A DNA stretch of 64,000 nucleotides from Isurus oxyrinchus (GCA_026770705.1 JANJGN010000025.1:10602001-10666000), one strand, 5' to 3'. Counted from the stretch's first letter, positions 20,342-56,745 are shown. Numbers and translations are program-made. Notes: generated from the letters alone by a model not told the origin.

Positions 20342-20439
20342 AGACAAAAACAGAATTACCTGGAAAAACTCAGCAGGTCTGGCAGCATCGGCGGAGAAGA
20401 AAAGAGTTGACGTTTCGAGTCTTCATGACCCTTCGACAG
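20342..20439 (-). mobile_element. 98-bp Penelope-type insertion carrying a minimal hammerhead ribozyme fold
   Basis: Perfect 14-bp TSD aaaatgatagctta (20328-20341 and 20440-20453). Minus strand reads CTGTCGA-A-GGGTC-atgaa-GACTC-GAAAC-GTC. Confidence 0.8.
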
Positions 20440-20524
20440 AAAATGATAGCTTAGTTGTTGAGTTACTTATGATCACACAATAGCAGTGCCACATCTGTGC
20501 TATTAAACACGATGGAACCAGGAA

Positions 20525-20800
20525 AGAATTGATTTGCACTTATATAGACCCTTTGACCACCTCAGGATGTCTCAAGGAGCTATACAACCAATGAAGCACT
20601 TTATGAAGTGTGGTCGCTGCTGTAATATAAGAAATATGGCTGCCAATTTGTGCACAGAAAGCTCCCGCAAACAGTAATGTAATAGTGACCACATAATTTG
20701 TTCTTTAGTTTTGTGAAGTTGATCGAGGAATGAATATTGGTTAGGATATGTGGGAAAACTCCCCTGCTCTTCCTTCAATAGTACATGGGATCTTCTCTGT
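20525..20800 (-). mobile_element. DeuSINE-like SINE, 3' half
   Basis: Homologous to 6880-7305 and 29580-30022. Confidence 0.75.
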
Positions 20801-21319
20801 GCACTAGATTCAGGGAAGGTTGAAGAGTGGAGATGGTGGGGGTTTAAATCTGGGGTGTGAAATCCATAGAGATTAAGTGTGTGGGGTGGAGCCCTCGACG
20901 CAGTAGATTAAACAGGGCCTGTGGAGGGACTGGACTTGCTGCCACTGGTCTTTTTCTTATTGCATGGCTTCATATATTTTTAAGGAATAAATACAGTGAG
21001 GGCAGAGCCCAAGGCCAATATACTTTATAATAGGTGAAAAATCAGAACAAGAGTTTGCAAACGGGCAATGTCATGCTTGTAAAATCACTTGAAGCAATTA
21101 AGCAAGTCAGTAAAATTGCTCAAATTTACATCTAGGGAAATGAACACTTTCAGCTAAAATACTGATTTTAGACAGTGTCAACATTTTTAAAATTGAGAAT
21201 GTTTAGTGAAGAATCAAGTCTTGCAGCACAGCAGATGACACGTTTGAAAAGCATAGTTGTGGGGGGGGGGCGGGGGGCGGGGAGAAAATGAGATAAATCA
21301 TGCAGGTTCTTTTTGATTT

Positions 21320-21690
21320 CAGCCCTGGCTCAGTGGTAGCAATCCTGTCTCTGAGTCTAAAAGTCATCAGTTCAAGGCTCACTCCAGAGACTTAAGTGCA
21401 CAATCTAGGCTGATACTCAATGCTTCACTGTTAGTGGACAAACTATTAAAGTCAGATTCTGTTTGTTCTCTCAGGTGGATATAAAACACCCCAAAACTGT
21501 GTTCAAGGAAGAATAATGCTTCTCAACTAAACAGATTACCTAATCATTTATTTCATTGCTGTTTGTGGGAGCTTGCTGTGCACAAACTGGCTGCTGAGTT
21601 TCTTACATTATAACAGGGCTACACTTTAACTGGACTTTGTTGTAAAGCACTTTGGACAGGACTGAAGCCACAAAAAATGCAATATAACAT
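21320..21690 (+). mobile_element. DeuSINE-like SINE
   Basis: Head tggctcagtggtagc..gttcaagg (A/B boxes) followed by the shared body. Confidence 0.75.
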
Positions 21691-21721
21691 TACCTCAATA
21701 ATTCATTCATAACCCAATAAT

Positions 21722-21933
21722 TAATTGCCACAGAAGGCTGTGGAGGCCAGGTCATTGAGTGTATTTAAGACCGAGATGGATAGGTTCTTGATTGGTAAGG
21801 GGATCAAAGGTTATGGGGAGAAGGCGGGAGAATGGGGTTGAGAAATTTATCAGCCATGATTGAATGGCGGAGCAGAATTGATGGGCCAAATGGCCTAATT
21901 TCTGCTCCTATGTCTTATGGTCTTATGGTCTTA
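21722..21933 (+). mobile_element. Young CR1 3' end
   Basis: Ends tctgctcctatgtcttatggtcttatggtctta (repeated 8-mer tail). Confidence 0.85.
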
Positions 21934-22884
21934 TACCTTTCTTTGGATGACTCCAAATTTGGGTGTTAACAGCTTGTAGATTAGAGAAAGGAAGTTCCTT
22001 AGTGTTGAAATCCTGGCCAACAATGAGTTAAAATAGGAGATGGTGTAGTCAGAAGACAGGAAGGAGGAACAGTATAAGATTGAGGAGTTACAGCTAAGGG
22101 AAACCAAAAGGTGGAAGTTCAGAATCATTGACATAATGAGGCCAATAAAATAATATCAGGTTTTAGACATGTTTCACAGCTGTGCACACACTGAGATTTT
22201 GAAACTATGTCACAATATCAGAAAACTAACATACCACCACAAAAAATAAAGGAGGTATGACTGAAAATATACCATAATGGAAAGAAATCCAGATTAACAT
22301 CTGACCAAGGATTTAAATCCCACACTTAACCTGTCTAGATACTTACTGACCTGCAGTGGATTGGTAGCCTTTTGCTGCTTTTATTCCGGATTAAAGGACA
22401 GGAAGAATTAAGTTAACGTCACTTGTAACACAGATGTTTCTTGCAAAAGTGGAGAGTGCTCAACATTATAGCTCAAATGGAATCCCTGCTGGAAATGGAG
22501 CAGGGGAAGCTCAAATGCACTTATTAATGGGGTACATGAGAGAATGTCCCTGATCTAGAGTAATGTTCTCATTTAATTTTTGGGGGGAAGGAGAGTTAAT
22601 TTTTGCAATGCAATACAGTCCCCACTGTTTATAGTGGCTCCAAAATTTTCCTGTTACACCTGATGCTTGGTAAACTATAATAAATTTGCAACAGTGAATT
22701 AACAAGGGTCTTGGTGGGATGTAACCAACTGCGCATTTCCATTGAAGACTTCATTGGGATACTTTCCTGTTCATATTGGAAATATTTCACCTAGAGGTTT
22801 TAAAAAGTCAGGTACATTACAGAACACCTGAAATCTCCAATTTCCAACTGACCCTCCCATAATCATCAACAGTTGCATCTGAAT

Positions 22885-23307
22885 CAATTTCCACTTGATA
22901 GGCACCCCATCCATTATATTAAACATTCACTATCACCAGCGCACAGTGGCAGCAGTCTGTGCCATCTACAAGATGCACTGCAGGAACTCACCAAGCCTCC
23001 TTCAACAATACCTTCCAAACCCGCAAACTCTACCATCTGGAAGAACAAAGACAGCAGATGGATGGGAACATCACCTGCAAGTTCTCCTCCAAGTCTTTCA
23101 CCATCCTGACTTGAAATTGTATCATTGTTTCTTCACTGTCACTAGGTCAAAAATCCTGGCACTCCTTAACAGCACTGTTGGTGTACCTTCTCCACATGGG
23201 CTGCAGCAGTTCAAGGAGGCAGCTCACCACCACTTTCTCAAGGGCATTTAAGGATGGACAATAAATGCTGGCTTAGCCAGAAACGCCCACATCCTATGAA
23301 TGAATTT
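22885..23307 (+). mobile_element. CR1-clade LINE 3' fragment (second lineage)
   Basis: HQRTVAAVCAIYKMHCRNSP...GLQQFKEAAHHHFLKG* remnant and tail aataaatgctggcttagccag..cccacatcc. Confidence 0.8.
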
Positions 23308-23339
23308 GTCCCAAATATAGAACATATTGCCCATTGTTT

Positions 23340-26300
23340 TTTTCTAAGTGCAGTGGCAGGTGGGTTTTGCAATACGTTTCCCACTGATCATAGTGATGGC
23401 AAATCACACCTGATTTAGCACTTGGAAGCTCATTAATGATGCACAGGCGAGTAGCTCTCCATATCTCCTGGTGGATAGGGAGCTGAGTCGTCTACCCCAC
23501 TGTTACCTGGCCGGGTCGACGTTCCAGATGCCATATTTAAATGGCACCTGAGCACACATGTTTCACTCTCTCTAGCCCAGCTGTCTCCAGGACATGCACA
23601 GAGATGTCTGATGACCAGAGAGGGAAGGGTCGAACCACAAGAAGAACCCTGCACCCTGTTCCAGCCCTGATGCCCTCAAGGCCTTATTTTGAGGAGTGCA
23701 TGAGCATAGGGATGTGCTGTACCCGAGGGACGGCTCCAGAAAGCATACCAACCTCCCCCTCCAGCCTGGCAGGAAGGTCAGTGAGACCGGCCACTGCACC
23801 TGCAACATCATCCAATGCAGCAAGAGGATGAATGATATCATCGACTTCACCAGTGTAGGTCAACATTCAACCCCAATATCGAACTCCCATCCTGGCATCA
23901 TGTACTCAAAGGGCTACTTTCTTCAGGGATCTCACACAACCACTAGCGGGGGGGCACATGTCACCACTGATTGTCTCACGGAAACTTTCACATCACCGCA
24001 TTTCATCTATCACGTTGCTCACACTCCATCCTCAGCCCCTTCTCGGGAGGGCTCACCATACACAGGGGACATGCATGTTTCCCAACCTCTGCTCCATCCC
24101 TTCTCATTACGTTCCTTTCTTTTGTCTTCACTCGGGGCAAGCTGGCCCACAACAGAAACGAAAAATCCCAAACTGGAGGAGGGACGGCCGACATCATAAC
24201 CCTCACTAAGTTGGAGGATGCACCAAGCTGGCTGGCTGGGGAGGACAGGGAGATCGTCCTCGTCCTCCGAGTCCTGGAGACCTGGGCTGTCTGTGCCTCC
24301 GACTGCAGCAGGGAAGTGTCAGTGAGGTATTCTCCCAGAGGTGACCCCAAGCCAATCTAGAGTTACGCTCCACTGAGGTGGGTGTCTCTGTGCTGGTGAG
24401 CGCAGCAATGGTTCTTCCTCAGTGGCTTCCTCAGCTTCATCAGCCAACATGGTGTGGGAGCTGGGGCTTATTGTCGGCCACCCTCGTCTCCCTTCATCTG
24501 CTGGTGCCTATAAGAGAGGGAAGATAGTTTTAGTTCATGAGCATTCAGAACACTCAGAGTGTGGCTCGAGACCAGCCGCCCGCTCAATCCGCGTCGGATG
24601 AGGATCCCCTAAGAGCAGCCACCAATAAAATGCTGGGGATGCAACAATAGGTGGTGGGACATCAGGCAGCCACTAAGCAGACTGGAGCAAACAACGGAGG
24701 CATCCGTCTGTGTTCTGTATAATGTTGTGGCTCCAACATGCCAGTGCCTCGAGGTCACAATGGCAAGGTTAGCAACCACCGTGGAGAACTCGAGCCAGCA
24801 GGTTCTGCCAGATTTGTGCTTAGCCCTGGATTCCATGGCCACATGCACTGGTGGGCACCATCAGTGTCTAGGTGATAAGGGGGCGGGGCACCTTGACCTC
24901 CCTCCAGGTGCCCCTTCCCCTCATGGAGTCACGGAGGGGCCCTCGGGCACCCAAAGGGAGGATGAGCAATTTTGGACACGCCGGGAGCCTCCACTCAGGA
25001 CATTCCAAGAGTGTCCAGCTACGCAGAATCCCCTCTGCCTGTGACCACATCCAACCCACTTCTCAGGCAAAGGAGGGTGTTTCTGTCCCTGAGCAGGAGA
25101 CCCTTACCAGGCCGGGCTCTCCAGTTCTCGGGCCACCAGAGAATGCCTGCCAAGGTCACCACGGACATCAGGACATGGCAGTCAGCCTCCGCCTCAGCTG
25201 GGAATGTGGGGCTGCACCCAGACATAGTGGTAAAGTTAGGAAAATTAAGAAATATTGAAGTCACTCTTGGGCCACAGGTGTGCAAACACTAAAATTATTG
25301 CACTTTTGTTAATACATTTGCTGTTTCTGTGAATGGATTGGCCAGATGAAGGTGTTGCAATTATGTGCGTTTGAATTCTCTGATTTTGAGGTTTAGCATC
25401 AACCCACTCAGTGATAGTCTCTCTTTGTGAGATTCACATTCATGTGATATCGACCTCACTGAAGCTATTACCTGCACGCTTGCATGATGTCATGGAGATG
25501 TGTTACAATCTTTACTGGAAGCCTATGCTTTATGCGCTTGTAACCCTTTATCCTAATGATACACCATGATGTGAGGGCAGCTCAACAGCCATGAGGAATT
25601 AGCTGCAGTTGTGTCTCTTCAGCGATATCCCCAACCATGTCCTCACCTCACTGGTGCTGTAGTTTTTCATTAATGTAGTTTCTTCATCAAGTAAGTTGCT
25701 GCTGCATTCTCACTGATGTGTCAATTTTCATTCCCAGAGCAAGCACATACAGGATGCACTGCTGGCCTTCTTAGAAATCATGGCTTGGTGAATCATGAGG
25801 CTGGAAAGCTCAAGTCTGAATGCTGAACTTGCTGTCCATATGACTGGTTGGCCATCCCCTTGAAAGCAATGGAATTACATTAAGAGACAGGAGAAAAGTG
25901 ACCATCTCCTGTTGCCTTCATTTTACTCCTCCTGGAACCTGGCAGCAATTAAAGTGGCACAGGTACATCTTCCACATTATGCTTCCTCAATGGCATCATC
26001 CTGTGGAAGGTCACTCTCATCACCTCTTCATGGCCCTTGCCTCATGTGGGCCTCTACCCTCCCCTTCTAGAGGCTTTGTGTACAGTCACCTACAGAAGAG
26101 ATCCCTCCATTCCGGCCCCCAAAGAAAGCTTCACAACACCCCCCCGCCAACTTTACTATGTTTTTCTCATATACAGGCTGCAGATGCCTCTACAGAACTA
26201 GACAAGCCAATGGACCTGGACTGCGAAAACACCCAGCACACCAAGCTGTGCATTACCCCAAATGAGCACACAGCCCTTGCTCCTCCCTGGAGGGGGAGTA

Positions 26301-27410
26301 CAATTTGCTTGCCATGTATAGGACTGCAGCATTTGCTGCTGCACCCCAGAACTGTTTCTTCTCTATCACTCTAGACTGTGAGGTCCACAGAGACCAAGGA
26401 CAGCCTTTATTCTCTCATTCCGGACTGTGATCCAAAGGAGTGGCTCAACTCTCTGACTCTGACCTGCTGGCTCCAGACCAAGGACTTTGATTTTCAATGT
26501 GTTGACCATTGCCCTCATGACTGAACACTACATTGGCTCCCTTCCCTCCCTTCCTCCCACCTTCATGAGTTTCAGTGTGAGCCATACATCATCCTCCACA
26601 TTAACACGCTCCTAATCCGGAGTCTGCATGCATACCCTCCCATTCGTACTTGTTGTATCCCATTCACACCCTTGTTTGTCAGTGTCTCAGTTTCACTTGC
26701 TGGTCTCTAGCTTCCCACCCCTCGGTCTCCCCTCTGCCTGCTATCATTGTCCCTCTCCCTCCACCCCCTTGCAAAGCCTTCCTGACTCTCTGCCTTCCAT
26801 TGTTCCCCCTCATCCCAACCTTTTTGAATGCCTTTCTGCCTCTTTGCCCCCCCGACCATGTGTCCATTATCCTTTCGCCCCACAACCCCAGGTTGAAATG
26901 TTGGTCTCTGTCTGAATGTTCAGTCCTGCCTGATACCACTGCACACTGCTGTCCTTCTGGACTATGGAGGCAGCCACTGGAGGCAGACCAACCCAACATC
27001 CTCAGCAATGTAGCGTTCCAGTGGCATCGCAGCGAGAATGGTGCAGCGCTGAGGCTATGAGTGTAGCACTCACCTCAAAGCCATGAGCAAAGTGAGGTCC
27101 GACCACCGCGTGCCACCTTCTTCAAGTGTGAGTCAGACCGGTACAATTTGCCACTGGTGTGACGCAAGATTGGAAGGAGGCACGTGATCCCAGCAAGCAG
27201 CTGATTTAATGAGCATTCATGAGATGGTAATGAATGCAAATGATATTCGCATCACTCGTCAGCGAGATAGCCGACCCGCCATTAATCCGCCACTGGGAGA
27301 ACTGCAAACTATTTTCACGTCGGCGGGGTTCCAACTTTTTGGCTTCCGCTGCATTTTCTGATCCCGCCTGTCACAAAACTTGCCGCAGGCAGGGTGGGAA
27401 AATTCCTCCC
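23340..27410 (+). mobile_element. Decayed PIF/Harbinger-type DNA transposon with a Myb/SANT-like gene remnant
   Basis: RDVLYPRDGSR...IIQCSKRMNDI (~23710-23840), KLAHNRNEKSQTGGG (~24140-24185) and basic C-terminus AAPRHSGKVRKIKKY* (to 25258). Right end aaaattcctccc resembles the MITE TIRs. Left end is uncertain and no transposase was recognised. Confidence 0.7.
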
Positions 27411-27904
27411 AATGTTAAGAATCTCGTCAGTAGGGTAAACATACTTGACCAAATTGCAGATTTCCCTAATGTGGGTGACTGCCAATGATAAGTGATCAGT
27501 ATAAGTGCTGGAGACTGTATGAAAAGCTTCTTAATATGTTCCGGCAGCACTTCAGGTTGCTTCAGAGACCTATTCTCTTTCTTTTATCCAATATCCCCCC
27601 TCCCACCTCCTGAGGTGCTGACCTCTCTGAGATCGCCAACTTGCCCTCTTTTAAAGTAAGAAGTGAGTATTCTTCATGTGTGATTCTAGACACTGAGCAA
27701 CAGCAGGCTTTCAAGTTAATCCCACTGGAGCTTGTTGCTCATTCGACATCCACACACATGTACCTTTACAGCAGAAATCACTGGATGGCAAGTGCAGTGT
27801 TTAAAATTATATTGTGCAATTGAATCTGTAGCCAGCAGATGGGGACAAGTTATGGAGGTAATGCGACTTATTTGGTACGCGCCTGGCAGGCACCTTCCAC
27901 AAAA

Positions 27905-28345
27905 AGAAAGTGCTTGCATTTATATAGTGCCTTCCACAAGCTCAGGACCTCCCACAGCAACTGTGCAGCAAGTTAAATACTTTTGAGATGTGGTCACTAT
28001 TGTGTTTAGGAAACATAGCAATGAATTTGTTCACAGTAAACTCCCAAAAACGATCATGAGGTAAATGACCAAATAATCAGTGTTTGTGATTTTCATTCTG
28101 GGGTAAATATTGGTCAGGACATCAGGGTGAACTCCTCTGCCTTCAGAAAATAGCACCATGGGATCTTTTACATCCAGCTGAGAGGGCAGATGTGACCTTT
28201 GTTTAATGTCTCATCTAAAAGTCGGCATCTCTGCCAGTGCAGAACTCCCTCCGTGCTGCAGTGGTGGTGGTCTAGGTTTCATGCAGAATCCACAATCTTT
28301 TGACCCAGAGGTGTGAATGTTACCAGCTGAACCACAAATGGCATC
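27905..28345 (-). mobile_element. DeuSINE-like SINE
   Basis: Homologous to the other copies. Confidence 0.75.
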
Positions 28346-29579
28346 ACAGAATCACAGGATGTTGCGGCAGAGATCATTTGGTCAGTCAAGTCTGCGAATA
28401 TCTCTTCATCATAACCAAACTCCCACCCATCTGCTGGATACTTATATCTTTAAATATTCCTCTTTCTCAAGCAGCTAACTGTCTTTTTTAAAAACAATTA
28501 TACTGTCACATCTGTGACAGAGAATTGCACATTCTAACTCTATATTATTTTTGTTAACTGTCCTTTCATTGTTTTCATGATTGTCTTAAATTTGTGCCAA
28601 CTATTTACTGTCTCTCTAACCAGTGGAAAATAATGTAGTACTTTCCACTTTATCGTCACCCTACAAAAAACCTGAGGAGCTGTATCAGCACTGTTGAGAA
28701 AAGTGCTAACTGTTCAACTATCTCTCCCTTGGTAACATTCTAACTGATCTGCACTCCAGCTATAGCATATCTGTCAGGTATTAGAGTAAGAGGCCACCGA
28801 ATTGGAACATATGGTGCTGGAACGATGATCTTGAGAGTAATAAATTCAAAGATTTTGTAAAATAATTGATTTTCTTCAGTTTATTCAAGCCTAGTTCCAG
28901 TATATAACAGCCATCAGTAGAGGAAACCTAGCTGATTATATTTCCCTATATTTCCCTCTAACCACCCAGCTACCACCCCCAACAATTCTGGCTGAGCCCG
29001 ATTCTGGCATCTTCCCCCATGATCCTTATTTGGATTCTGCACTTTGTGTCCAAGATCAAATGAGCCATTGAGAAAATCCAACACACAGGTCTGACTAGGA
29101 CCAGCTGTTCTTTCCTCATTCTCCATGTAAACAACCCTGTTCTGTTTTTCAAATGTCCTTTAAAAAAACTCTTGAAGGATATTGTGGAGGGTAGATGATT
29201 TTGCTCACATGGCTAAGCAATCAAAGTCCTCACACATACTCAACATGTGTCTTTAATAAGTGTTTTCATCCAATTGCGTATCAACACTCACACAGTGGAG
29301 CAGAAACATAAACCCATTATATTCCATTTGCTGTTGGATTCCTGTTAACCATTCATTGAGTTGCCAGGATATTTCTGCGTTGCATCCAAAGAAAGAAACA
29401 AGGTCTAAGAAATCCATTTCCTGTTTGTTTTCATTTTCAGTTTTCTCCCCCTCTTCTGCAGGCGCTGACTCTAGTTGGTGTAACTCCACAAGAACTGACA
29501 GCTCTCGATTCCTTGCCCAAGTGGCCTTGTTTCAAGCAGCTGTTGAACCAGTGAATTCTGGCAGACTATTCCTGAGTGT

Positions 29580-30022
29580 CAGCCACGGCTCATTGGGTAG
29601 CACTCTTGCCCCTGAGATAGAGGTTGTGAACTCAAAGTCCCATTTCTGAGATTTGAGCACGAAACCCCAAACTGACTGAGGAAATGCTACACTGTCAGGA
29701 GTTCTATCTTTCAGAGGAGACTTTAACCTAAGGGCACTTGTGCATTCTCAGATGGATGTAAAAGATAACATGGCATTATTTTGAAGAGGAGGGGAGTTAT
29801 ACCCAGTGTCTTGACGTTATGTATCCCACAGTTAAAATCAGAAAAACATGTGATTGGGTCATTAACACATTGTTGTTTGTGGGAGCTTGCTGTGCACAAA
29901 TTGGCTGCCACGTTTTCTACGTTACAACAGTGAATGTCCTTCAAATTCACTTCATTGGTGGTAAAGTGATTTGCAGTGCTTTTAGGTTGTGAAAGGCGCT
30001 ATAGAAATGCAAGAGTTTCTTT
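29580..30022 (+). mobile_element. DeuSINE-like SINE, near full length
   Basis: Head, central domain and tail gaaaggcgctatagaaatgcaag. Confidence 0.8.
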
Positions 30023-30675: not shown

Positions 30676-31440
30676 ACAACAACTTCTATTTATATAGACC
30701 CTTTAATGAAATGAAATGTCCCAAGGTGCCTCACATTATTTACAAGGAGCATTACAAAACAATGTATGAGCCTGAGCCACATAAGGTGACAATAGATCAG
30801 CTGGCCAAAACCTTGGTCAAATAGATAGGACTGAAGGAGTGTCTTATAGGAGGAAAGCAAAGTAGAGAGGCAGAAAGGTGTGGGGAGAGTATTCCAGAGC
30901 TTGGTGCTCAGGCAAATGAAAGCACAGCAATCAATGGTGGAGCTATTAAAATTGGGTGTGCACAGGAGGCTGGAGTTAGAGGAACGCAGAGAATATGTAG
31001 CATTGTAGGTCTCGAGGAGATTACAGAGATAGGGATGAGCGAGGCTTTGGAGAGATTTGAAAACAAACATGGGAATTTTAATATAAAAGCAAAATACTAC
31101 AGATGCTGGAAATCTGAAACAAAAACAAAAATTGCTGGAAAAACTCAGCAGGTCTGACAGCATCTGACAGAGAAAATCAAGACATTGCTTGACTGGGAGC
31201 CATTGTAGGTCAGTGAGCCCAGGGGTGATTGGGGAATGGGACTTGCTGTGAGTTAAGACACAGACAGCTGGGTTTTGGATGACCTCAACGTTATGGAGGG
31301 TAGGATATGGAAGACCAGCCAGGGGGTATTTGTATACTCGAGTCTAGAATTAACAAAGGCATGAATGAGGGTTTTAGCTGAGACAGGGGTGAAGTCGGGT
31401 GATGTTACAATGGTGGAAATAAGCAGTCTTAGTGTTTGCT
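30676..31440 (-). mobile_element. L2-clade LINE fragment interrupted by a truncated Penelope-type tail (~31082-31172)
   Basis: FKSLQSLAHPYLCNLL...LWNTLP remnant; insert gatgctggaaatctgaaacaaaaac..ctcagcaggtctg. Confidence 0.75.
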
Positions 31441-31496
31441 AATTTGAATAGGTCAGTGATACTATAGAATTCCGAGAATGATTGCATCAACTCTAT

Positions 31497-34333: not shown

Positions 34334-34383
34334 AAAGTTTCTGAGTCAGGAAGTTGTAAGTTCAAGCCTTGCTGCAGAGATCT

Positions 34384-34991: not shown

Positions 34992-35739
34992 TTGAATGAA
35001 CACTGTTGCATGCTGTCTTTGAATGAGATGTAAAGCTGAGGCCCCATCCAGTTTCTGAGGTCATGTAAAAGGTCCCATGGCACTTTTCATTTGGTGTCCT
35101 GGCAAACATTTATCTCTTAAACAATACCATGAAAAACTCATTATTTGACATCCTATCTCCTTGCTGTCTGCGAGACTTTGCATTGCTCATATTGTCTGAA
35201 AGATCATCAACCTGTAATACTGAATCTGTTTCTCGCTCCGTAGATGTTGCCTGACCTGCTGTACTTCCAGCATTTTCTGTTTTCATTTCAGAGTTCCAGT
35301 AACTGCAGTGTTTTGCTTGCTTTCTTTTATTTTGTGACTGAGAGCCTGTCATGTTAGTAAACATTTCCGATAAATTTCTCATTCTTGATGGATGTTCCAC
35401 ATAAACAAAACAGCTCAGAACTAAACTGGTAGCCTGTCTTTCCTTTTATTCCACCCACAGTTGTGTGGCTGGCAGAATGTGTGAGTCTTGTCTTGAAGGC
35501 TGAATGATGTCTAAGGTCCGTTCCATCCCTTCCATCTCCAAATCTTCAATAATTTTATCCTTTTATCTAAATACCTCTGTAAGTCTTCTTTTTCAATTCC
35601 AACTTTAAATTTGTCAGTCCCTTCATTTCTCAGCCTCCAATTGTCTTTTCCCTCCATCAGCAACCCCTCAGTGTATTTATACCACCATCTTCAATTCTTA
35701 TTTGCTTACAGTCACTTGGTAGTACAGAACTTGAATATT

Positions 35740-36010
35740 ACTGAAAAGAGAGACATGTCACTGAAGCTTTTCAACTTGCACTCATCAGGACAAATGCAAG
35801 AATGCCAAATTTCAAACGATCACAACAATTTATACTACAGGAGTAAAAGTTGCTGATTGGTTGGCAAGCTGACTCTGGTTGGCTGAGGTATTGCCTTTTC
35901 TCCTGTACCGTAAATTGTTTGTAATCATTCAAAATTTGGCATTCTTGAGCTTGTCCTGAATAATGGCAAGTTGAATCATTGGCAAGTTGACTCTGATTGG
36001 CTGAGGCAAT
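35740..36010 (-). mobile_element. Penelope-type remnant of a second family, with a decayed hammerhead and an internal inversion
   Basis: Minus strand 35757-35791 reads GTC-CTGATGA-GTGCAAGTT-GAAA-AGCTTC. An inverted partial copy lies at ~35896-35959. Confidence 0.55.
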
Positions 36011-41484: not shown

Positions 41485-42275
41485 CTTGCTTTTATGTAGG
41501 AAATTTCACAACCACAGGATGTCTCAAAGCATTTGACAGCCCATTAAGTAATTTTGAAGTGTAGTCACAGTTGTAATGTAGGAAACACAGCAGCCGATTT
41601 ATGCATGGCAAACTCCCACAAAAAGCAATGTGATAATGACCAGATAATCTGTTAGCTTTTTGTGATGTTAATTGAGGGATAAGTATTGGTGAGGACATCG
41701 ATGGATAGCTCACCTACTCTTTGTCAAAATAGTACCATGGGATTTTTTGCATCCACTCAAGCAGTCAAACAGGGACTTGTTCTGTTGAAGGGTCATAAGG
41801 ATTCGGAACGTCAACTGTGTTCCTCTCCGCCGATGCTGCCGGACCTGCTGAGTTTTTCCAGGTATTTTTGTTTCTGTTTTTGAAACAGGGGCATGTGTTT
41901 GTCTCATCCAAAAGAAGGTACCTCTAACAGTGCAGCGCTCCCTCAGTACTGCACTGGAGATGACTTTGGCTTTGATTTTTGTGTTCAAGCCCTCAGCCGC
42001 CATTTAATGGTAGTATCCAATGCAGTACTGAGGGAATGCTGCATTGTTGGCGGTGCCATGCTTGATCCCAGGAAAGGACCACTGCTGCCCAGTTAAGTGC
42101 CTGGCTGGCCCTTAATTCAGCAAGCCTTCCCAGGAGGAGGCGACAGGGGTTCTTGCTGCCTCTCCAGCCAACAGGCTAAACCTTGGTCGCCTCCATTAAA
42201 TACCACTCCTGTAGTGGGCTTGAACCCAGAACCTTGTGACTCAGGTGAAAATGTTACCAACTGAGTCACAGCTGA
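41485..42275 (-). mobile_element. DeuSINE-like SINE with nested insertions
   Basis: The SINE body is interrupted at 41779-41882 and again at ~41995-42205. Confidence 0.7.
41779..41882 (+). mobile_element. Penelope-type short insertion with a hammerhead fold
   Basis: GTT-CTGTTGA-A-GGGTC-ataag-GATTC-GGAAC-GTC-AAC; flanking direct repeat aaacaggg (41767-41774 and 41883-41890). Confidence 0.75.
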
Positions 42276-46672: not shown

Positions 46673-47404
46673 TTGATCACCACCTCCTTACATCAGCCTT
46701 ATATTCCAACCGTCAATCTACACAAGCCCTACCCATTACTGGCGCCCATACCAACTTATTCCTCAGCCTCTGTCTCCTCTGCTCTGTCACCCATGATGCC
46801 CTCTCCATCCTTTTTTTTCCTCAACACTTCTGCCCACTCTTTTTTTTTTAAAAAAGCCCCCTGAAGATCTTTCCCTTTGATCATGCTTTCGATCCTCTTT
46901 CCCTCCCACCCTCTCCATCCCTCTCCCTGCTCGGCGCCCACCCATCTCCAAAGTGCTCCAAGGTGTGTCTTCTTACAGGGCCATGACAGAAATCTAAGTT
47001 ATGGAAGAGAAACTGCGTAGTCTGTTGAAGGCAGAGCCAGGTCTAAGCTGGCTCAATAGCTTCTGTGTTTATAAGTAATTGGCCGGCACAACGATGGTTA
47101 TGGGTGACTCATTTTGTAAAGTACAGCAGCAGCTGCTCACATGCAGACTGCCTAGGCCCAGTTAATAACACTGAAAATGGAATTGCTATGTTTGCTGGTT
47201 AGAAAAGTAGGAGGTTGTTGCAATAGTAATGAAATAAAATTGCAGGGTGCTTTCCTTCTTAGTTGTAGGATGAGAAAGAAAACATATACTGTGATGAATG
47301 TATTTGTTGTTGCTGTGTGTTCACGTGCTGCACTGTTGTGGAGGCAGATCTTTCTATTCATTCTTGTCTGAGCTTCTCTAATAGCTGAACATAATTTAAA
47401 AGCA

Positions 47405-47568
47405 AAAATAAAAGAAAAAACTGCGGATGCTGGAAATCCAAAACAAAAACAAAAATACCTGGAAAAACTCAGCAGGTCTGGCAGCATCTGCGGAGAGGAG
47501 CACAGTTAACTTTTCAAGTCCGTATGACTCTTCAACAGAACTAAGTAAAAATAGAAGAGAGGTGAAAT
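47405..47568 (-). mobile_element. Penelope-type short insertion with a hammerhead fold
   Basis: Minus strand 47504-47542 reads AGTT-CTGTTGA-A-GAGTC-atacg-GACTT-GAAAA-GTT-AACT. Confidence 0.75.
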
Positions 47569-47659
47569 AAGCATTAACTTAAAGGTTGGGCCACAGCGTA
47601 AAATGGGCAGCATTGGATTAGAAGTTGATCGTACGTCCTGTCCAAGATCAGGAGAGGAG

Positions 47660-47990
47660 AATCGTCATCGGCTGTCCCGCGATTCGAGGATGAAGTCTAC
47701 TCAGGGTTGTGTGTTTCTGCCATGGGTCTTCATGTGGCCAAGCAGGCTGATTCTTGACCCACAGATCTTTGGACATAGGGGACAAGGTGTCGCACAAGGT
47801 GGTAGGATCCAGAGTGCAAGGTTTTCTTCTTTATCTTTCCTCCTCAGCCATTGCTCTGCCTCATCATTAAGACGTTGTGACTCAAAGTGTGATGCAACTT
47901 GATGGACAATTTGTCGCCCTCCTGAAGGACTGGTAGCAAGCTCCCCCCAGTCGCTAATGTCAATGCTGGCGCACTTCAAGGTGCGCTTTA
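47660..47990 (-). mobile_element. RTE-clade LINE 3' end
   Basis: C-terminal C2H2-like motif CPLCPKICGSRISLLGHMKTH followed by a short tail catcctcgaatcgcgggacagccgatgacga. Confidence 0.75.
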
Positions 47991-48999
47991 ACAGGCAGTT
48001 GATCCATTATTGCATGTTTTTCCTTCCACAATTGCCAGGGGTTTGAAATGATCCCTTTTTTGCCAGTGGGTAAATGTGCTGCATGGCATGGCCCAGAGCC
48101 ACACGCATCAAGAAGACCCCATCTTGGATTTTGCTTTGTTCTGTATTAGTTGAGTTGGCCGAGGTGGGGGGAGGGAGGCAGTGGTCACAGAAATGGGTAC
48201 TGGCAAACTCTGGGCAAGGTGGAGAAAAATCCGTCAGGATTCCTGCCTCTGATGGCTGTGCACGTGTATGAATGTCAAGGGAGAACAAGATCGAGAGCAG
48301 CTGAGATAGCACCTCACATGTTGACTCTCATTGTCAAAGCTCACATGTGAAGATTACCCATTCAGGTGACGTACTGGAAAAAACCATTAAATCCTGTTCC
48401 CTCACAGTAGTGGTAGACTCCTTGTTGTTTTAGTATGTCCAAGCCGTAAGTGCTTTCAAAGGTCACATTTTTTACAGCTAAACTTACACTAAGGAAATCG
48501 ATTATAGCGGAAGAGAGGTGCGTGCTACTGCCCCCACTCTCTTGGCTGCTTTTGGCAAGGATCCAGGATCCTTGGCAGCTGCAGTGGGTGGCTGGTACTG
48601 GGTACTTCTCTCCTTTCACCCTGAACTGCAGTCCAGCCAGGGTTACTAATTATGGTTAATGCCATCGTGTCACAATGGGACAAGGCGAGGAGGTAGGCTC
48701 CAAGAGCTACCTCAGGCTGTATGGGGATTAAACCCATCAGTTGGCATTATTTTGCACCACGCTTTTAGCCAACTGATCTAATTGTCCCCTAGCCCCCGTA
48801 AAAACAGCACCCTAAGGAGAGTGTTCTGGGATGGTCTTTCTATCTTGGACTCTTGGCATGGAACTTGGTTGGTAGACAGATTGTAGACATACTCTGGTGT
48901 CTGCTTAACACTTGTTTATTAGTACTACATCTAAACAGATTATAGAGTAGGTACATTGCTCCAAGGCATGATTCCAACCTCTCACACAAACTGACAAAT

Positions 49000-49722
49000 T
49001 AGTAGCAGGAGTAGGCCACTTGGCCCCTTGAGCCTGCTCTGCCATTCAATAAAATCATGGCTGATCTGATTATAACATCAACCCCACATTCCTGCCCACC
49101 CCCGATAACCTTTCACCCTATTGTTAATCAAAAATCTATCTAGCTCTGCCTTAAAAATATTCAGGCTTTGCTTCCACCGCCTTTCGAGGAAAAGTTTTCC
49201 AAAGACTCACGACCCTCTGAGAGAAAAAATTCTCCTCATCTCTGTCTTAAATGAGGGACACCTTATTTTTAAACAGTGACCTCTAGTTCTAGATTCTCCC
49301 ACAAGAGAAAACGTCCTCTTCACATCCACCCTGTCAAGACCCCTCAGGATCTTAAATGTTTTGATCAAGTCATCTCTTACTCTTCTAAACTCCAGTGGAT
49401 ACAAGCCTAGCCTGTCCAACCTTTCCTCATAACACAACCCACCCATTCCTGATATTAGCTGAGTAAACCTCTGAACTGCTTCTAACAGATTTACATCTTT
49501 CCTTAAACAAGGAGACTGATACTACACAATATTCCACATGTGGTCTCACCAGTGCCCTGTACAACTGAAGCATATCCTCCCTACTTTTGTAATCAGTTCC
49601 CTCACAATAAATGCTAACATTCTATTAGCTTTCCTAATTACGTGTTGTACATGCATACTAGCCTTTTGGGATTCATGCACTAGGACACCCAGAACCCTCT
49701 GAATCTCAGAGCTCTGTAATCT
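49000..49722 (-). mobile_element. CR1 LINE 3' fragment
   Basis: LGVLVHESQKASMHVQHVIRKANRMLAFI and GLCYEERLDRLGLYPLEFRRVR remnants, plus CR1 tail. Confidence 0.9.
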
Positions 49723-50099
49723 CTTAAGCAAGAGTCTAACATGTGACTGACCGATGTCAGTAGTACATCATCATCTATATCATATATTAGCATATTGCAT
49801 CCGTTATCGCTTTATAGTACAGAGATGAGGGGAGAAAATTGGGGGAAAGTAATATTTTGCCTTAAATACGTAGGGCTTTGTTTCTTTTGGCAAGTATTAT
49901 ATCCTGACCTCTTCATCAGTACACTTTGTTCAGCTCATTTTGTGCAGTAAGTCCTGGTCAATATGAAGTGTATGTTTGAAGCTTGCTTTTACTAGTCATG
50001 GGGATTTTTTTCCATAGCCCTGTTCGAGGTTTTATGACCTTATTCCCTTAGGTTTCATTTAGTCATCATGCTATGATCATTTACAGATTTGCAAAGGCA

Positions 50100-50531
50100 G
50101 AAAGTGCTTAATTGAAAGATGAGGTGCCATTCCTCAAGCTTCTGTTAAGCTTCATTAGAACATTGCAGAGGACACCAGAGTGGGACTGGGGAAGAAAATT
50201 AAAATGGAACAGGTTGGTCTCTTACAATTTTAATTCTCTGCCCCCAATTTCTCATCATAACCACTGCTCTCATTTCTGCAGCTGGTGCTTTAATGATATG
50301 TTATTGCCATTTACACCTCCTCTGGACCCATCACTCATTTCTTTATGTGTCCAGTTATTGCCTCCTTTGGCCTTGGACCATCATCTCTTTTATCACTTAA
50401 TCATTTCAGCCTTCCAACCTAGCACTCCTACCATTTGGGTCTTTCCCTCCACCTGCCTCTGTACCTGCTTAAGAACTGTTACATCTTTGACTTTTTCCAG
50501 TTTTGATGCAAGGTCCTAGACCTGAAACATT
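50100..50531 (+). mobile_element. Older Penelope-type remnant ending in a decayed hammerhead
   Basis: 50499-50531 reads AGTT-TTGATGC-A-AGGTC-cta-GACCT-GAAAC-ATT, preceded by a pyrimidine-rich 3'UTR-like stretch. Confidence 0.55.
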
Positions 50532-51068
50532 GGGCAGAACATTGTGGAGGCAATGGGGGTCTTGGCACCAGCTGGAGAGCCGGCTGGAGACCATGTCACC
50601 TCTTTTCGGGAAGACTTGCTGCATCTTGTTCCATTCTAGAACTTGACAGGTCAGTGGCGGGTCTCTCCTCAGGATCAAGACCCGGGGGCAGGAGTCCCGC
50701 TCGCCGAGAGCTGTCAGCCAATCAGACCCCGGCAGCTCTGTTCAATGGCAGCTCCACCGAGTGCAAAGGCCTTTTCTCAGTTTGAATTTGAGAAAAAATT
50801 GAGAGAGGGGACACTTCCCTTCCGAAGCGCCAACACCTTCACTTACCTGCTATGGCATCCCACTGCTGCTTCTAAACTGGAGGACCTCCTACTAGCCCTC
50901 CAGCTTCAAGAACCCATCTGCCGTCCTTAACTGGACAGCAAGCCCACCTTCTGACAATTAACTATCTGCTCTGGGGAAAATGAGTGGCTGTTTCCCACAC
51001 AGTGTGGGTTTCCAACCACCATTTGAGCCTGATGGTGAGGGTCAAAACCCCACAGGAAAATTCTGCCT
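50532..51068. mobile_element. Harbinger-type MITE
   Basis: TIRs GGGCAGAACATT / AAAATTCTGCCT; interior related to the 33575 and 60902 copies. Confidence 0.7.
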
Positions 51069-51092
51069 AAATTCTTTCTTTAAAATATATAT

Positions 51093-51380
51093 AATTGCAC
51101 TTACCAAAAAAGAAAGAGATGTTTTTTAAATCGTACTAGTTGTTTGTCTATGTGTCAGTATTCATGTTCCAAACTGTCTCCTGATATTAATAATAACCCC
51201 TCTCCCTGCCAAAACTCCGTCCTTTCAAGTACTGTTGTGTTACTGATAAAGTTAAGAGCCATTTCATTCCATAAATGAACACAGAACACCACTTAGCCAT
51301 GCAAGGAGCACAGAGGCATTGTCATGGAAAATAGATACCTTCTTGAATTCATTCTTCGTTATTAAAATGAAACTTGAAGC
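51093..51380 (+). repeat. Arm A of a long-range diverged inverted repeat
   Basis: Collinear reverse-complement match to 59054-59365, including ctcctgatattaataataa(a)cccctctccctgccaaa. Confidence 0.85.
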
Positions 51381-52009
51381 ATTATGTCTCACAGAAACTG
51401 CTCGAATTATGATCAGGGTGTAGATTTCATATTGTGACTCAGCGACAGGGGCAGCAGGTAAGAGTGTGTTATTTAATTTTTGAATTATTGTTTTAGAGTT
51501 CAGAATGTAGGAGCAGACATGACTTCATCCTAGTCTGCACACAAAGCCAGGGCAACAAGCAGAAGCCATCGTGTGTTCCAAATGTTATTAGGGGTTCCTG
51601 TGCTCCCAGCGAGGCGCTGTGCTTTTTAAAAACAAGCGCAAGTTTGAAAATTGGTGCTACAGCATTGTAGGCTTATCCCTGAATATGCTGCAATGGACTG
51701 TGGCTGCTCTCTGGAAGCATGGGATCAAAGGTCTTACTCCATTGCTCCTACTTTGCTCCTCTGAACTTTCCTATCTTGTCTTTCCAAATACACCACCATA
51801 CTCCTGCCCTTCAGCCAGGAAGAAAGAACTTGCATTTATAATGCACCGTTCACAACCTCCCAAAGCATTTACAGCCAACAAAGTTCTTTTGTAGTGCAAT
51901 CCTTCTGTGTTGAATTCAACGTTCACCCCACTGTCTTTCCTCAGGTTTGTAAGAATTAGACTTATTAAACCCTTCTTGGTACCAGCTAATGCAAGTGTCA
52001 ACAAGACCC

Positions 52010-52405
52010 GGCGGCAGCACTCTTGCCATCATGTCAGAAGGTCATGGGTTCACTTGAGCACATTGTCTAGGCTGACACTTCAATGCAGTACTGTGGGAGT
52101 GCTGCAGTTCCTCTTTCAGGTGAAATGTTAATCTGAAGCCTTCTTTGCCTCTTTAGGTGGACAGAGTGACACTATTCGAGGAAGAGCAGGGGAGTTCTCC
52201 AACTATGTTGGATGGCAATTATCCCTCAGTCAAACCTCCACAAAATAAAAAATCAACTCATCACTTGCCTTGTTGCTGTTTGTGGGATCATGTGTTGTGC
52301 AAATTGGTTGACACAAAACGTCAGCGGCTTTGGTTAAAAATTATTTGAAGGCTATGAGGCACTTTGGGATGTCGTTAGGTTGAGAAAGGCATACATCAAT
52401 GCATG
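52010..52405 (+). mobile_element. DeuSINE-like SINE
   Basis: Homologous to the other copies. Confidence 0.7.
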
Positions 52406-52704
52406 CCTGAGATGTTGATCAATTTCTCTGCTCTTGATATTGATTGTAACTCATGTTCAGCTCCACAATTCAGGAATTATTCCCTTATCACCACAGGTGG
52501 AGAGGTTGATAGTTGCAATTCTGTTACTTCATAAATTCCCAGTGTCATCTTTCGGCAATAAAGTGTAACTGTGCAGGTTTTCAATTTATTTCGTGCCATG
52601 GTCAACACTGTGATGTTTCCTTGGTGTGTGAGCTTTCTGTGCTCGTAAAAACTTCAGTGTTTTCCACTTGGTGTACATTTACCAGCTGTGTTGTAGCTCT
52701 GCTA

Positions 52705-53025
52705 CAACAACAACTTGCATTTATATACTGCCTTTAATGTAGGAAGAAGTCCCAAAGGGGCTTCACGGGAACGATAAAAAACAAAATATGAGGCTTACAC
52801 ATATGGCGATATTAGGGCATTTGGCCACAAACTTGGTCAAGGAGGTAGGTTTTAAGAAATATTTTAAGGGTTGAAGGAGAGGTACAGAGGTTTAGGTAGG
52901 CAATCCCAGAGTTTAGGGCCATGGTAGCTAAGGTCACGGCTCCCATTGATGCAGCAATTAAAATTGGGGAAGTATAAGGGGCCAGATTTGGAGGAGCACA
53001 GAGATCTGAGAGGATTGAGGGGCTG
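52705..53025 (-). mobile_element. L2-clade LINE 3' fragment
   Basis: Tail caacaacaacttgcatttatatactgcctttaa; homologous to the 2462 and 30676 copies. Confidence 0.7.
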
Positions 53026-53110
53026 GGGGAGGCCTCTCCCAGGGTGGCATTGTCTGGTCCCGTTGGCGTCGGGCGTCATGGCAGGTAGAGGAGGACAATT
53101 CGGTGTGAGG

Positions 53111-54660
53111 GGGGTGAAATTGGTTTCACGATGGGGTGAAAGCGCAGCGGGATTATCCGACGGTGTCCGTCACGGTGGAACACAAATCCCGCTGGAAGCC
53201 GGCGTGAACCCGGTTTGCATCCTGGGTAAGGCCCAACTGGAATCGTCTCCCCCACGCCAGAGTTACCGCCGGCCTAGAACATGTCTGGGCAAGCCTGATG
53301 TTCAGGATTTACCTTTAGGGTCTTGCTCAGGTTGCGAACATCGGAGGGAAAGATGATGCTGGAGCCTCACAGCTACCAGACCCTGGGGGAACACATGCAT
53401 CACATGCTGGGTGGATCCTCGTGCACTTGCCTCCACTGGGAAGCAGCTCAGCTTGGGAGGTCTCCAGTGATGTCTGGGGTCTGGTTCGGAACATCCCGGT
53501 CTTGACCATGGGATGCTATGGATGATCAACTCAGGGAGGGAGTGGGGGTGCTGCGGGAAGGTCTAGCTGTGAGTTGGAGAGGAAGATGTACTGGGGCGAT
53601 GGTTTTAGAGGAAGGTCTAGGTTTGACTGGGAGGAAGACGTACCGGGGAAGTGGGTTGGGGGGGTGGGAGGGAGTGGGAGTAAAGTTGGGAGTGGAGGAG
53701 GGAATGAAGGTGTCAAGGGAGGGTAAGTTTGGGAGGGAAAGGGGCAAAGGTGCCAGGAGTGAAGTGAGGCTGGGGTGGGGGATGTGAAGGTGTTGGGGGG
53801 GTGAGGTTGGGAGGGGGAGGAGGGAGCATGGGGGAGGAGGATGTAACAGGGGAGAATACGACAAATGAGGAGGTACGTGTAAGGTGGGAGGAAGGTATAA
53901 GGCAGGGAGTTTGGAGGGGGGAAGGTGCCTAGGGGAAGGGGGGAGGAGGGAGTAAGGGTAGAGGAGGGAGTAAGTGGTGGGATGTCCAGGCAAACATGTA
54001 AGGGAAGGGTCTGTGGAGTCAATGACTGCCTCTTGAGAAGCAAACTAAGAATGGACATGGTAGGAGGGAATGGCCAGTATGAGAGGGCAGGGGCCAGAAT
54101 GAGAGGGCAGGAGAGGAGATGCAGGTCAGCTCAAATGGACAACTGAAAGTGAACCCCAGCAGGCAGCATTGAAAATGCTTAGGGCAGTAAGATGAGTGTG
54201 ATGGAGGAAGGCTCCCCGTGCATGGGAGAGTGCTTGCATGAGTCTCCATAAGGCCCTGCCACATACACTTCTCCCTCCAGAATCACCTGTGGTCTGGCTA
54301 TGTGCATCTGAACTGCTAGTTTGGGGGGATGCAGGGAGAGCACTCACAAAGCTTGTAAATGAACCTGAAAGGCAACATTATACATTATTCAGTGAAAGTG
54401 AATATATGTTCAGATTAAAAAGTGACAAAATGTGTTCGCCTGTGAAACCACTTGTGATCAGAATTTCTTAACTTTTCTCAGTCTACCACTTCTTCTAGGT
54501 GCTGCCCTGACATCCGCAGCAGGGCTGGAGGCAGCCTGTGCAACCGTTGCCTCTGATGACTTTGGCATTTGTCCTCTGGAGAGCCGAGTCCTTGAGGGCC
54601 CCGGTTTGCTTTGGCTGTCCTCCTGTGGGCCAGCTGCTCCCTCTGCGGTTACAGTGTACC
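53111..54660 (-). mobile_element. Harbinger-type element remnant(s) with the Myb-like gene C-terminus
   Basis: TIR-like GGGGTGAAATTGG at 53111. Minus strand ~54457-54610 encodes ..AAPRRSGRLRKVKKF*, homologous to ..AAPRHSGKVRKIKKY* ending at 25258. Confidence 0.6.
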
Positions 54661-54724
54661 TTAAACTAGGAGCTTACTGCTGCCTGCTCTGCACAGCTGT
54701 GTTGTGGGTGGTATAAGGTGTTGC

Positions 54725-55640
54725 TTAACCAACCATTGTTCCTTATCTGAGAAGATGGGAACACTGGCTCCTGTGTCTTATTTGAAATTGATGAGTTGGC
54801 CGTTTACGGAGATGTCAGCATTCCAAAGGGGGAATCCAGGATCCTTGATCTCACACAAGAAGCTTCTTGGTGTGATACCTCAATCTTGTGGATTGTTTTG
54901 GGGTCCTCTGCATGTCTCAAGTCCTAAACTTATACAGTTTTCCAAAGTGCCCCAGCCAATTGCAATGGAAGCACTGTGCAGAGATTGCTGGACAATGCCC
55001 TTGCCTGTGTGGTCTTTTGACTCCACTGTGCTGATATGGTCTCCCACTAGCTTGTGGTCTGTTTGGGTATTGCCTCCTTTGGCCTGGAGTCTCCCTGCCC
55101 TTTTGTTGCTTTATGAGCAGGACAGTTGGGGTGGCTCTCAATACCAACCTCACCACGTAAAATGAACTGGTATTGTTGGCAGATTCCAGACTGCCTGACT
55201 ATTTGGATGGCTTTTTTAGGGTCAGATCTTCTTTTTCCTGTAGTACATCTGAAAGGGAATCATCAGCCGCTCCAACTACTATTTAGTTTCTTATGAGTTC
55301 TGATTTAAGATCATTGGCCTTCAGCCAATCTGTATAACTCATTTATGAAAGAGTTAACGGGTTCTCTAGGCTGCTGGACTTGCTTGTTGAATTTTTCTCA
55401 CTTTAAAATTTTACTATTTCTTAAATTAAAGTAGGTATCGAAGGACTTCAGGGCATCTTCAAACTTATCTGAACATTCAATTATTTCTTGCCTCGCAATT
55501 ATATCATTGGCTATTGGACTTACTGAGTACGGTAGCGTATTCACTTGCTTAGCCTCTGTCTTCTTATCTAATCCTAAAGCCATCATATATCTCAAAAATC
55601 TTTTTCGCCAAAACCCCCAGTTCAGCACCCACTTTATACC
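54725..55640 (-). mobile_element. Ty3/Gypsy retrotransposon gag-protease remnant (pseudogenised)
   Basis: Gag WGFWRKRFLRY..GLDKKTEAKQVNTL and EPVNSFINELYRLAE, decayed knuckle CFHCNWLGH, and protease ..FK*DTGASV near 54760-54790. Confidence 0.85.
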
Positions 55641-56294
55641 AGTCTAAATTGATCTGGTGGTGTTGATTTATTATCGATGACTGTCTTTCAGCACAGAGGA
55701 GCACAGCTTTAGCTGATGTGTCTGTTTTAAAGATGGTGCTGCAGTAACTGTTTGCTTTTCCTCTTCCTGCACTTGTCGGTTTTTGGTGGGCTCATGCTGC
55801 GATTCTAGGTCCAATTTCAAAGGAATGGATTATTTGCAGCAAATCTTTACACCAGAGGCTTGGGGCCCTTTAGAACATTTTCGGTGTATTTTAGGCCTAT
55901 TAAAAAATGAATCCCAGCTCTGGCTGAGGTTTTAAAGCTCCTTTTTTTTAATGGAGCTCGGGCTGCCACATGGTATAATGTCGATCCTACTGATAAAGGC
56001 ACGTTCAGCCTTTGTATTGAATTTTGCTTTCTTTGTTCATTGTTGTGATCTGGCTAGATCCTTTGTCTCTGCAATCGATGGGGATTCACAATGGACCTGC
56101 ATGTCCTCTGGTGGTGTCATTTAACTGCACAGTTCTTCTGTCCTTCCAGCCTCCACATCTGCAATGGAGCTTCTTTTAAGGATACGTACAGCTGTGTCTT
56201 CAGTTCAGGTGCATTCCAGTTAAGTCAGGATGCTGTTCCTTTAATTTATCAGATTCTGGGGCCCTTTGCCAGCTTCCCAGGGTTTGCTCCTTAA

Positions 56295-56524
56295 CTGCTA
56301 CCATGTTGTAATGTGGTTAGGTGTCTCACTAAGAGGCTTGTGTGGTTGAACATGAACTGTTTACTGTTAACACACAACCATATACACAGCCCTGTCTGGG
56401 TGCTATCTTCATGCCGACTTCTCCCAGATTCTCCGTACACACATTCTACCATCACGTGACTCTCTACATCAGAATGTGGGCAGCACTATTCTCCAGTTCC
56501 ACATTAATCTTGCTTTGCCCAACA
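56295..56524 (-). mobile_element. 5' LTR (56304-56524, TGTTG...CAACA) and adjacent primer-binding site TGGTAGCAG (56295-56303)
   Basis: Inverted 5-bp LTR termini. The PBS is complementary to the ..CUGCUACCA 3' end of initiator tRNA-Met. It lies upstream of gag on the same strand. Confidence 0.8.
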
Positions 56525-56622
56525 CCATTATGCGACAAGAAAGTTCTAAGTCTCCACTAACCTTGGTAGCAAAAAGTAGTTTCTGATTTCACTCCTGAAC
56601 TGTCAAACTCTAATTTTAAGAT

Positions 56623-56745
56623 AAAAACAGAAATACCTGGAAAAACTCAGCAGGTCTGGCAGCATTGGCGGAGAAGAGCAAAGTTGACGTTTCGAGTCCT
56701 CATGACCCTTCAACAGAACTAAGTAGAAATAGGAAAGGGGTGAAA
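56623..56745 (-). mobile_element. 123-bp Penelope-type insertion with an intact minimal hammerhead fold
   Basis: Perfect 12-bp TSD taattttaagat (56611-56622 and 56746-56757). Minus strand 56682-56720 reads AGTT-CTGTTGA-A-GGGTC-atgag-GACTC-GAAAC-GTC-AACT. Confidence 0.85.

Follow-up and report, generated by a model that had tools for sequence, protein, structure and literature searches.

Hammerhead motifs in a 64 kb window

We analysed a stretch of 64,000 nucleotides from the shark Isurus oxyrinchus (GCA_026770705.1 JANJGN010000025.1:10602001-10666000; hereafter the window, with positions counted from its first letter), which carries four minimal hammerhead ribozyme motifs in 5'-truncated copies of a Penelope-like element (PLE). 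All four read CUG-U-(U/C)-GA, i.e. they have U at position 6 of the core (U6) where the consensus has A (A6), followed by an extra A, a 5-bp stem II, GAAA, an ACGT-type stem III and AACT. As detailed below, U6 is fixed in the source lineage of an autonomous element that kept retroposing, and the hammerhead fold looks as if it is still under selection.

The four copies differ in age and completeness. The copy at 20342..20439 (minus strand) is a PLE 3' end of the young U6-C7 type, with 98% identity to a young intact unit over 101 nt. Its hammerhead (20405-20439, minus strand) begins at C3, the 5' arm of stem I being gone, with U6 at 20436 and the predicted cut after 20409. The copy stops short of the optional tail and has a perfect 14-bp target site duplication (TSD; 20440-20453/20328-20341). 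Two copies are of an intermediate U6-U7 type. The one at 41775..41882 (plus strand) has its hammerhead at 41778-41816, with U6 at 41785, an A13G decay and an 8-bp TSD (41767-41774/41883-41890). The one at 56623..56745 (minus strand) has a complete 39-nt hammerhead at 56682-56720, with U6 at 56713, a GUC cleavage site and a 12-bp TSD (56746-56757/56611-56622). The fourth, at 47396..47570 (minus strand), includes the tail and is of the oldest U6 type; in its hammerhead (47504-47542, U6 at 47535) the cleavage site is GUU, stem II reads GAGTC and positions 11.1 and 15.2 are decayed, and a search for the TSD of this copy found none. The window also holds a copy of an older A6 subfamily at 50440..50531 (plus strand). 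Its hammerhead, of a 37-nt type (50499-50531), keeps A6 at 50506, shows C3T and A9C decay, and has a stem II (AGGTC/GACCT) unlike that of the U6 copies; it ends at the cleavage triplet, broken by an unrelated insertion.

The first-pass annotation had placed four minimal hammerheads with this core at these positions, which sequence inspection confirmed, and had ascribed them to PLEs, which is borne out by the motif anatomy and by the continuation of the copies into an element with reverse transcriptase (RT) and GIY-YIG domains. The intact TSDs it described are present in three U6 copies, and none was found for the copy with the 47504 motif. Its notion of a separate family of minimal insertions had to be abandoned, as the copies are truncated ends of an autonomous element with variable 5' ends. 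Nor is U6 the trait of a young family: the window copies match different U6 subfamilies, that at 47504 the oldest. The A6 copy, given at 50503, is indeed older and retains A6, but it belongs to a different, decayed subfamily, and closer A6 ancestors exist elsewhere in the genome.

Two other readings of the motif were rejected. A core in a shifted register that uses the extra A (U-U-G-A-A-G-A) is possible only in the oldest U6 type and was lost with the later change at 10.2, and an antisense hammerhead is excluded because the opposite strand has no core. The hammerhead family is absent from the 15 Rfam matches in the window (E up to 5).

An autonomous Penelope-like element

Longer genomic copies run upstream through approximately 400 nt of untranslated region (UTR) into the end of an open reading frame (ORF) with a linker and GIY-YIG. 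One locus (L074) has three motifs spaced 3.35 kb around ORFs, one of them unbroken, and a second locus (L075) has one unbroken ORF. The unbroken ORFs are 918 aa long from the Met. They match the RT domain (Pfam RVT_1) with E = 7e-8 and 3e-6, above the cut-off in one of the two, and GIY-YIG with E = 9e-4 and 2e-3, below the curated Pfam cut-off. They contain the motifs ADKG, YIDD and VY...YIGET and a zinc-finger-like CX4CX2C linker (CPRKRCNTC, at residue 784). A PDB sequence search with the ORF gave 0 matches, and a tblastn of the 918-aa ORF found no ORF remnant in the window, where only 5'-truncated ends are present. The intact head-to-tail tandem copies are all U6-C7, the predicted cut preceding the ATG by 138 nt. 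Among the genomic copies, head-to-head inverted pairs are common, and so are tails on one side.

Because the RT, linker, GIY-YIG, tandem, inverted-pair and tail anatomy are all present, the element is, by its sequence, an autonomous EN+ PLE: it has a single ORF with RT followed by GIY-YIG, tandem pseudo-long terminal repeats (pseudo-LTRs), inverted 5'-truncated copies and an optional tail. The CX2-5CXXC linker between RT and endonuclease makes it of the Neptune/Nematis type, and of these two Neptune is the probable one, judged by the host group. The motif itself has the anatomy of a minimal type I hammerhead, with stem I, the pair G10.1-C11.1, an extra base after A9, a palindromic stem III and an NUH site; the core consensus of this type, CUGANGA...GAA with A6, is found only in the ancestral subfamilies. 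The first-pass annotation had envisaged an autonomous RT/GIY-YIG partner with the same end. This partner turned out to be the same element, and its intact tandems carry U6. A retrozyme or other stand-alone non-autonomous element is rejected on the variable 5' ends and the continuation of copies into the ORF-bearing element.

Some loci have further features of the leader. At locus L045 (C1:98056-98392), two direct U6 motifs lie 304 nt apart, a partial pseudo-LTR duplication that makes a natural close dimer. Between the ribozyme and the ATG (L074:1790-1880) there is a donor-like CAG/GTAATT, with an acceptor-like end about 90 nt further on. A pyrimidine tract with AG terminates precisely within stem I in the older subfamilies, like the Penelope intron described for D. 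virilis (PMC4209133). Among the joints listed for three possible RNA runs, none matched these leader signals.

Fixation and age of U6

We searched the 4.98 Gb genome with the motif and its context, counting exact pattern matches. The exact 35-nt context occurs 72,328 times with U6, 120 times with A6 and 1,578 times with C6 or G6 (U6 in 72,328 of 74,026). The reversed pattern has 0 genomic matches, hence the motif is not a product of chance. The C6/G6 copies listed are mostly C, the transition, so that A6 is at the level of rare point changes in this context. A looser pattern gave 116,662 U6 and 10,618 A6 matches, a ratio that does not measure success because older copies decay out of the patterns. 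We also used searches anchored in the flanks that ignore the motif. In older subfamilies, about 83 of the 100 matches listed out of 8,825 were U6 (by eye); in intermediate subfamilies, no A6 was seen among the 100 listed out of 10,966 (also by eye). In a second organism (B), 69-70% of the sampled words from a young locus were present in ten runs not marked RNA. No other letter at position 6 was listed at a 5% threshold in one run of organism B, an absence that is no proof of identity. Raw DNA reads from three further organisms had no coverage of the motif. U6 is fixed in the source lineage, as the first-pass annotation had proposed, and its further suggestion that the source kept retroposing with U6 is matched by successive U6 subfamilies that extend down to very short terminal branches.

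To place the change, 133 flank-anchored copies were collected, and the 76 reaching the ORF end were used for a maximum likelihood tree (663 columns, ribozyme columns excluded); most of the loci lie in the first part of contig C1, and some were chosen by motif patterns. The tree is a ladder. At its base, 14 A6 tips are separated from all 62 remaining ones, the dividing branch having an ultrafast bootstrap (UFBoot) of 100. The U6 subfamilies then follow one another, and the youngest end comprises 11 tips whose terminal branches do not exceed 0.015. Two A6 copies nested in the U6 clade stand singly, and both had been chosen by the A6 search. Beyond the U6 branch, the backbone adds up to approximately 0.33 substitutions/site (hand sum from the tree), and pairwise divergence among the oldest U6 copies is about 10%. 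Judged from these sequences, A6-to-U has a single, old origin within the tree sampled, and the element has been active until recently. U6 is not a young quirk, because the change precedes a ladder of subfamilies with a depth of about 0.33 substitutions/site.

The master lineage thus changed by about 0.33 substitutions/site against a drift of about 0.05 in the oldest U6 copies, approximately sixfold above the host background. A mutation rate of 7e-10 per bp per generation has been given for another shark species (PMC10587355).

Constraint on the fold after U6

We compared the majority letters of five successive U6 groups (21, 5, 9, 7 and 20 copies), so that the counts of changes are lower bounds. 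Switches occurred at 5 of the 39 positions of the motif: U became C at N7 and at H17, A became G at 10.2, turning A-U into G.U, and two bases changed in loops. By class, switches affected 0/10 core, 1/20 stem and 4/8 free positions, against 87/346 in the UTR and linker. The core and stems together differ from the UTR and linker (Fisher exact test p = 0.003, or 0.005 at a stricter threshold), and the concentration of four of the five changes in the 8 free sites out of 38 is also significant (p = 0.004). The 26 bases just 5' of stem I provide a local contrast, with 14/26 switched versus 1/30 structured bases. Stem II covaries across subfamilies: pair 10.1-11.1 is G-C or A-U and pair 10.2-11.2 occurs as three pair types. 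Stem cells are paired in 96% of 269 cases, although the oldest copies were chosen by a pattern that favours paired stems. A GUU-to-GUC change at the cut site occurred both in the U6 lineage and in a sister clade with A6; GUC is reported as one of the two fastest cleavage triplets (PMC3138052). Because the other ten core positions are unchanged and later changes fall mostly at free sites, the hammerhead fold looks still selected in these sequences, with moderate statistical support. Conservation is not peculiar to the motif: the neighbouring tail block is equally conserved (3/46 sites switched), and the UTR has further invariant blocks.

The A6 sister clade (L082, L086-L093) gained G10.2 and C17, as did the later U6 lineage, by convergence or by template switching. 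Across the subfamilies that followed U6, the pyrimidine tract in the 26 nt 5' of stem I (L074:1690-1708) gives way to what may be a short hairpin overlapping the AG of stem I. In the youngest subfamily, the region 5' of stem I repeats GGACTCGAA from the ribozyme itself.

Insertion junctions at the predicted cut

If RNA cleaved by the ribozyme were used for insertion, some copies would start at the predicted cut. This was found for 126 of the 584 junctions in a nine-position window. Among 100 junctions listed out of the 584 (by eye), 22 are at the cut, 18 at -3, 12 at -2, 11 at +4, 10 at -4, 8 at +3, 7 at +5, 5 at -1 and 5 at +2, with 2 indels omitted. About 34 of the same 100 can be explained by a microhomology of 4-5 nt with the inverted arm (by eye). 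A script applied to 30 loci found 6 with a microhomology of at least 3 nt, 3 with less, 2 with a TSD abutting the cut and 19 other cases. Junctions starting at the cut number a few hundred, versus tens of thousands of copies spanning the site, which argues that insertion mostly uses uncut RNA. A larger set of A6 junctions (799 matches) is confounded, as a different insertion often occupies the cut position.

What the U6 hammerhead may do

The first-pass annotation had spoken of a variant or attenuated ribozyme. We favour, with a confidence about evenly balanced, a reading in which the U6 hammerhead still cleaves itself, but slowly and probably with the help of a protein, and in which not every round of insertion depends on it. 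This draws on the sequence patterns above and on analogy with characterized ribozymes: minimal hammerheads of PLEs are described as inactive as monomers and weak as dimers (PMC4209133), and that of an anole PLE as cutting only with protein and as dispensable for insertion in vitro (PMC11167929). A single transcript would span tandem copies, and on it two motifs separated by 3.35 kb might base-pair by way of the ACGU palindromes. U6 would lower an already low cleavage rate, and most insertions would be copied from uncut RNA, with copying starting in the downstream tail. Residual low-level cleavage would still be useful and would maintain C3, U4, G5, G8, A9, G12, A13, A14 and the stems. A stronger proposal from the same sequences, which we consider doubtful, is that of a working natural A6U hammerhead, whose core would be rescued by the element's own RT-endonuclease or by the dimer geometry and whose cut site would have been re-tuned to GUC. 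If it were true, the A6 and U6 subfamilies of one genome would make a ready-made test of the purpose of the ribozyme.

Several results weigh against retained cleavage. Taken alone, the core gives p = 0.06-0.07 against the UTR, and the core and stems give p = 0.07-0.15 against third codon positions (12/76 switched); 11-14% of the 30-column windows of the UTR are equally conserved. The parallel gain of GUC could reflect template switching between subfamilies. None of the sampled A6 revertants gave rise to a subfamily, as might be seen either under neutrality or if U6 were advantageous. Once microhomology is removed, about 15% of junctions are at the cut versus 11% expected, and two neighbouring positions have 11-12%; in the A6 sister the fraction at the cut is similar (3/15). 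The hammerhead is not the minimum-energy fold in any of 18 copies, A6 and U6, and the probability of stem I is at most 0.26 in the folded copies, A6 ones included. Such a poor predicted fold is what a motif in need of a partner or a protein would show; it does not support cleavage either and, being common to A6 and U6 copies, does not distinguish between the readings. By analogy, A6U may be effectively dead, because a deep mutational scan found low activity for every CUGA-turn mutant with one or two changes, the C-G swap excepted (PMC9901934).

The leading alternative, to which we give a substantial though minority probability, is that the ribozyme has been catalytically dead since A6U and that its sequence is kept for something else, such as an RNA fold that the RT-endonuclease binds close to the tail, the starting place of copying, or a promoter or splice signal acting at the DNA level within the pseudo-LTR. 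Changes at position 6 are reported to cut activity sharply in Mg (PMC7151607; PMC9901934), the natural A6C variant being slow in Mg and active in Mn (PMC7151607, PMC3088659). PLE insertion works in vitro with catalytic mutants (PMC11167929), and Naiad PLEs are described as thriving and amplifying without canonical hammerheads (PMC8557442). The weak junction footprint at the cut site and the equal conservation of the tail block and of other UTR blocks also fit a motif kept for another role. What this explanation accounts for less well is the choice of sites: those that changed are the ones a hammerhead leaves free, including N7 within the core string and H17 (p = 0.004), and H17 moved to a better triplet in two lineages. 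A role at the protein or DNA level does not particularly predict such a pattern.

It is improbable, in our view, that the motif has been both dead and unconstrained since A6U, its conservation being due to limited time and patchy rates and U6 having hitchhiked with a successful master. The p-values for the core alone, the fraction of UTR windows as quiet as the motif, and the comparison of only five groups, one of 5 copies, would all be in line with this. Against it stand the approximately 0.33 substitutions/site accumulated by the master lineage after U6 and the contrast between the bases just 5' of stem I (14/26 switched) and the structured ones (1/30).

Finally, it is very unlikely that U6 was favoured for a non-catalytic reason. 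One such reason would be the removal of an upstream AUG from the next tandem leader, A6-U7-G8 being an AUG with a 9-codon upstream ORF in the GUU-type A6 subfamilies. Another would be a stronger hairpin that sequesters the core strand: among the folded copies, the oldest one with U6 has this base paired in a long alternative hairpin with a probability of 0.9, versus 0.01-0.14 for A6. However, a new AUG arose in loop II of the later subfamilies, which are the most abundant ones, and U7C could have abolished the original AUG with no damage to the core. The alternative hairpin is seen in A6 copies as well and is weaker in younger U6 groups, and no splice joint is among those listed for the three possible RNA runs.

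Relation to known systems

The minimal hammerheads of PLEs have been known since 2014. Core variants are known too, U3-A8 from PLEs and A6C from a phage. The closest relatives of the motif are the minimal hammerheads of metazoan PLEs (Cervera and De la Pena 2014, PMC4209133). As described there, they share the 4-bp stem I, the extra nucleotide between A9 and stem II, the G10.1-C11.1 pair, the palindromic 15.2-16.2 with no loop III, the site in repeats flanking an RT-GIY-YIG ORF and the occurrence mostly as solitary truncated copies or inverted pairs. They differ in the core, the variant there being U3-A8 and here CUGUYGA. The text and searchable supplement of that article contain no shark element.

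A natural change at position 6 is described for the A6C hammerhead of phage Bcep176 (Perreault 2011, PMC3088659; Naghdi 2020, PMC7151607), with which A6U would share the predicted loss of hydrogen bonds and low activity in Mg. That case is a C, a single example and monomeric, whereas ours is a U in a dimer-type motif of more than 100,000 copies, known from sequence alone. Literature searches, in which Lunse et al. 2017 on PLE variants was not covered, found no natural A6U and no shark PLE ribozyme.

As to the element, PAc, a Poseidon PLE of the green anole (Frangieh 2024, PMC11167929), shares the tandem arrays, the hammerhead in the pseudo-LTR, the start of copying downstream of the ribozyme and the optional tail left behind. 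It belongs to another clade, its ORF begins inside the ribozyme, unlike here, where it begins 138 nt after the cut, and its core is not reported as variant in the text of that article. The Neptune and Nematis EN+ PLEs (Craig 2021, PMC8557442) are described with the same single ORF, DKG-motif RT, CX2-5CXXC linker and C-terminal GIY-YIG, the same tandem and inverted pseudo-LTR structures and a tail of 30-40 bp.

The job of Penelope hammerheads is debated: they may process tandem transcripts, form circles, be passengers or do nothing. Here, one lineage offers matched A6 and U6 ribozymes, intact autonomous copies and more than 100,000 U6 insertions. The finding is of interest because it turns this open question into a direct paired assay. 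If U6 is dead, the lineage provides in vivo evidence for massive amplification of a canonical PLE that retains the fold but does not cleave itself. If U6 cuts, the natural core consensus widens, and searches based on that consensus miss a very large class of motifs.

Other features of the window

Sequence comparison identified two further copies of the family: a tail-only fragment without hammerhead at 31083..31180 (minus strand) and a very decayed old copy with a remnant hammerhead and tail at approximately 35195..35314 (plus strand). The window also has long inverted repeats of other families (3821-4016, 33733-33787/41271-41325 and 35771-35975), which cause sub-threshold Rfam matches to miRNAs.

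The insertion that interrupts the A6 copy occupies 50532..51068 (plus strand), at the cleavage triplet, and has short terminal inverted repeats; we take it to be similar to a miniature inverted-repeat transposable element. In 16 of 20 old A6 loci selected by hand, its terminal motif lies directly against the cut position, and about half of the 100 matches listed out of the 799 for A6 look like these loci. This suggests that the old hammerhead is an insertion hot spot for this element with terminal inverted repeats, with a 3-bp duplication.

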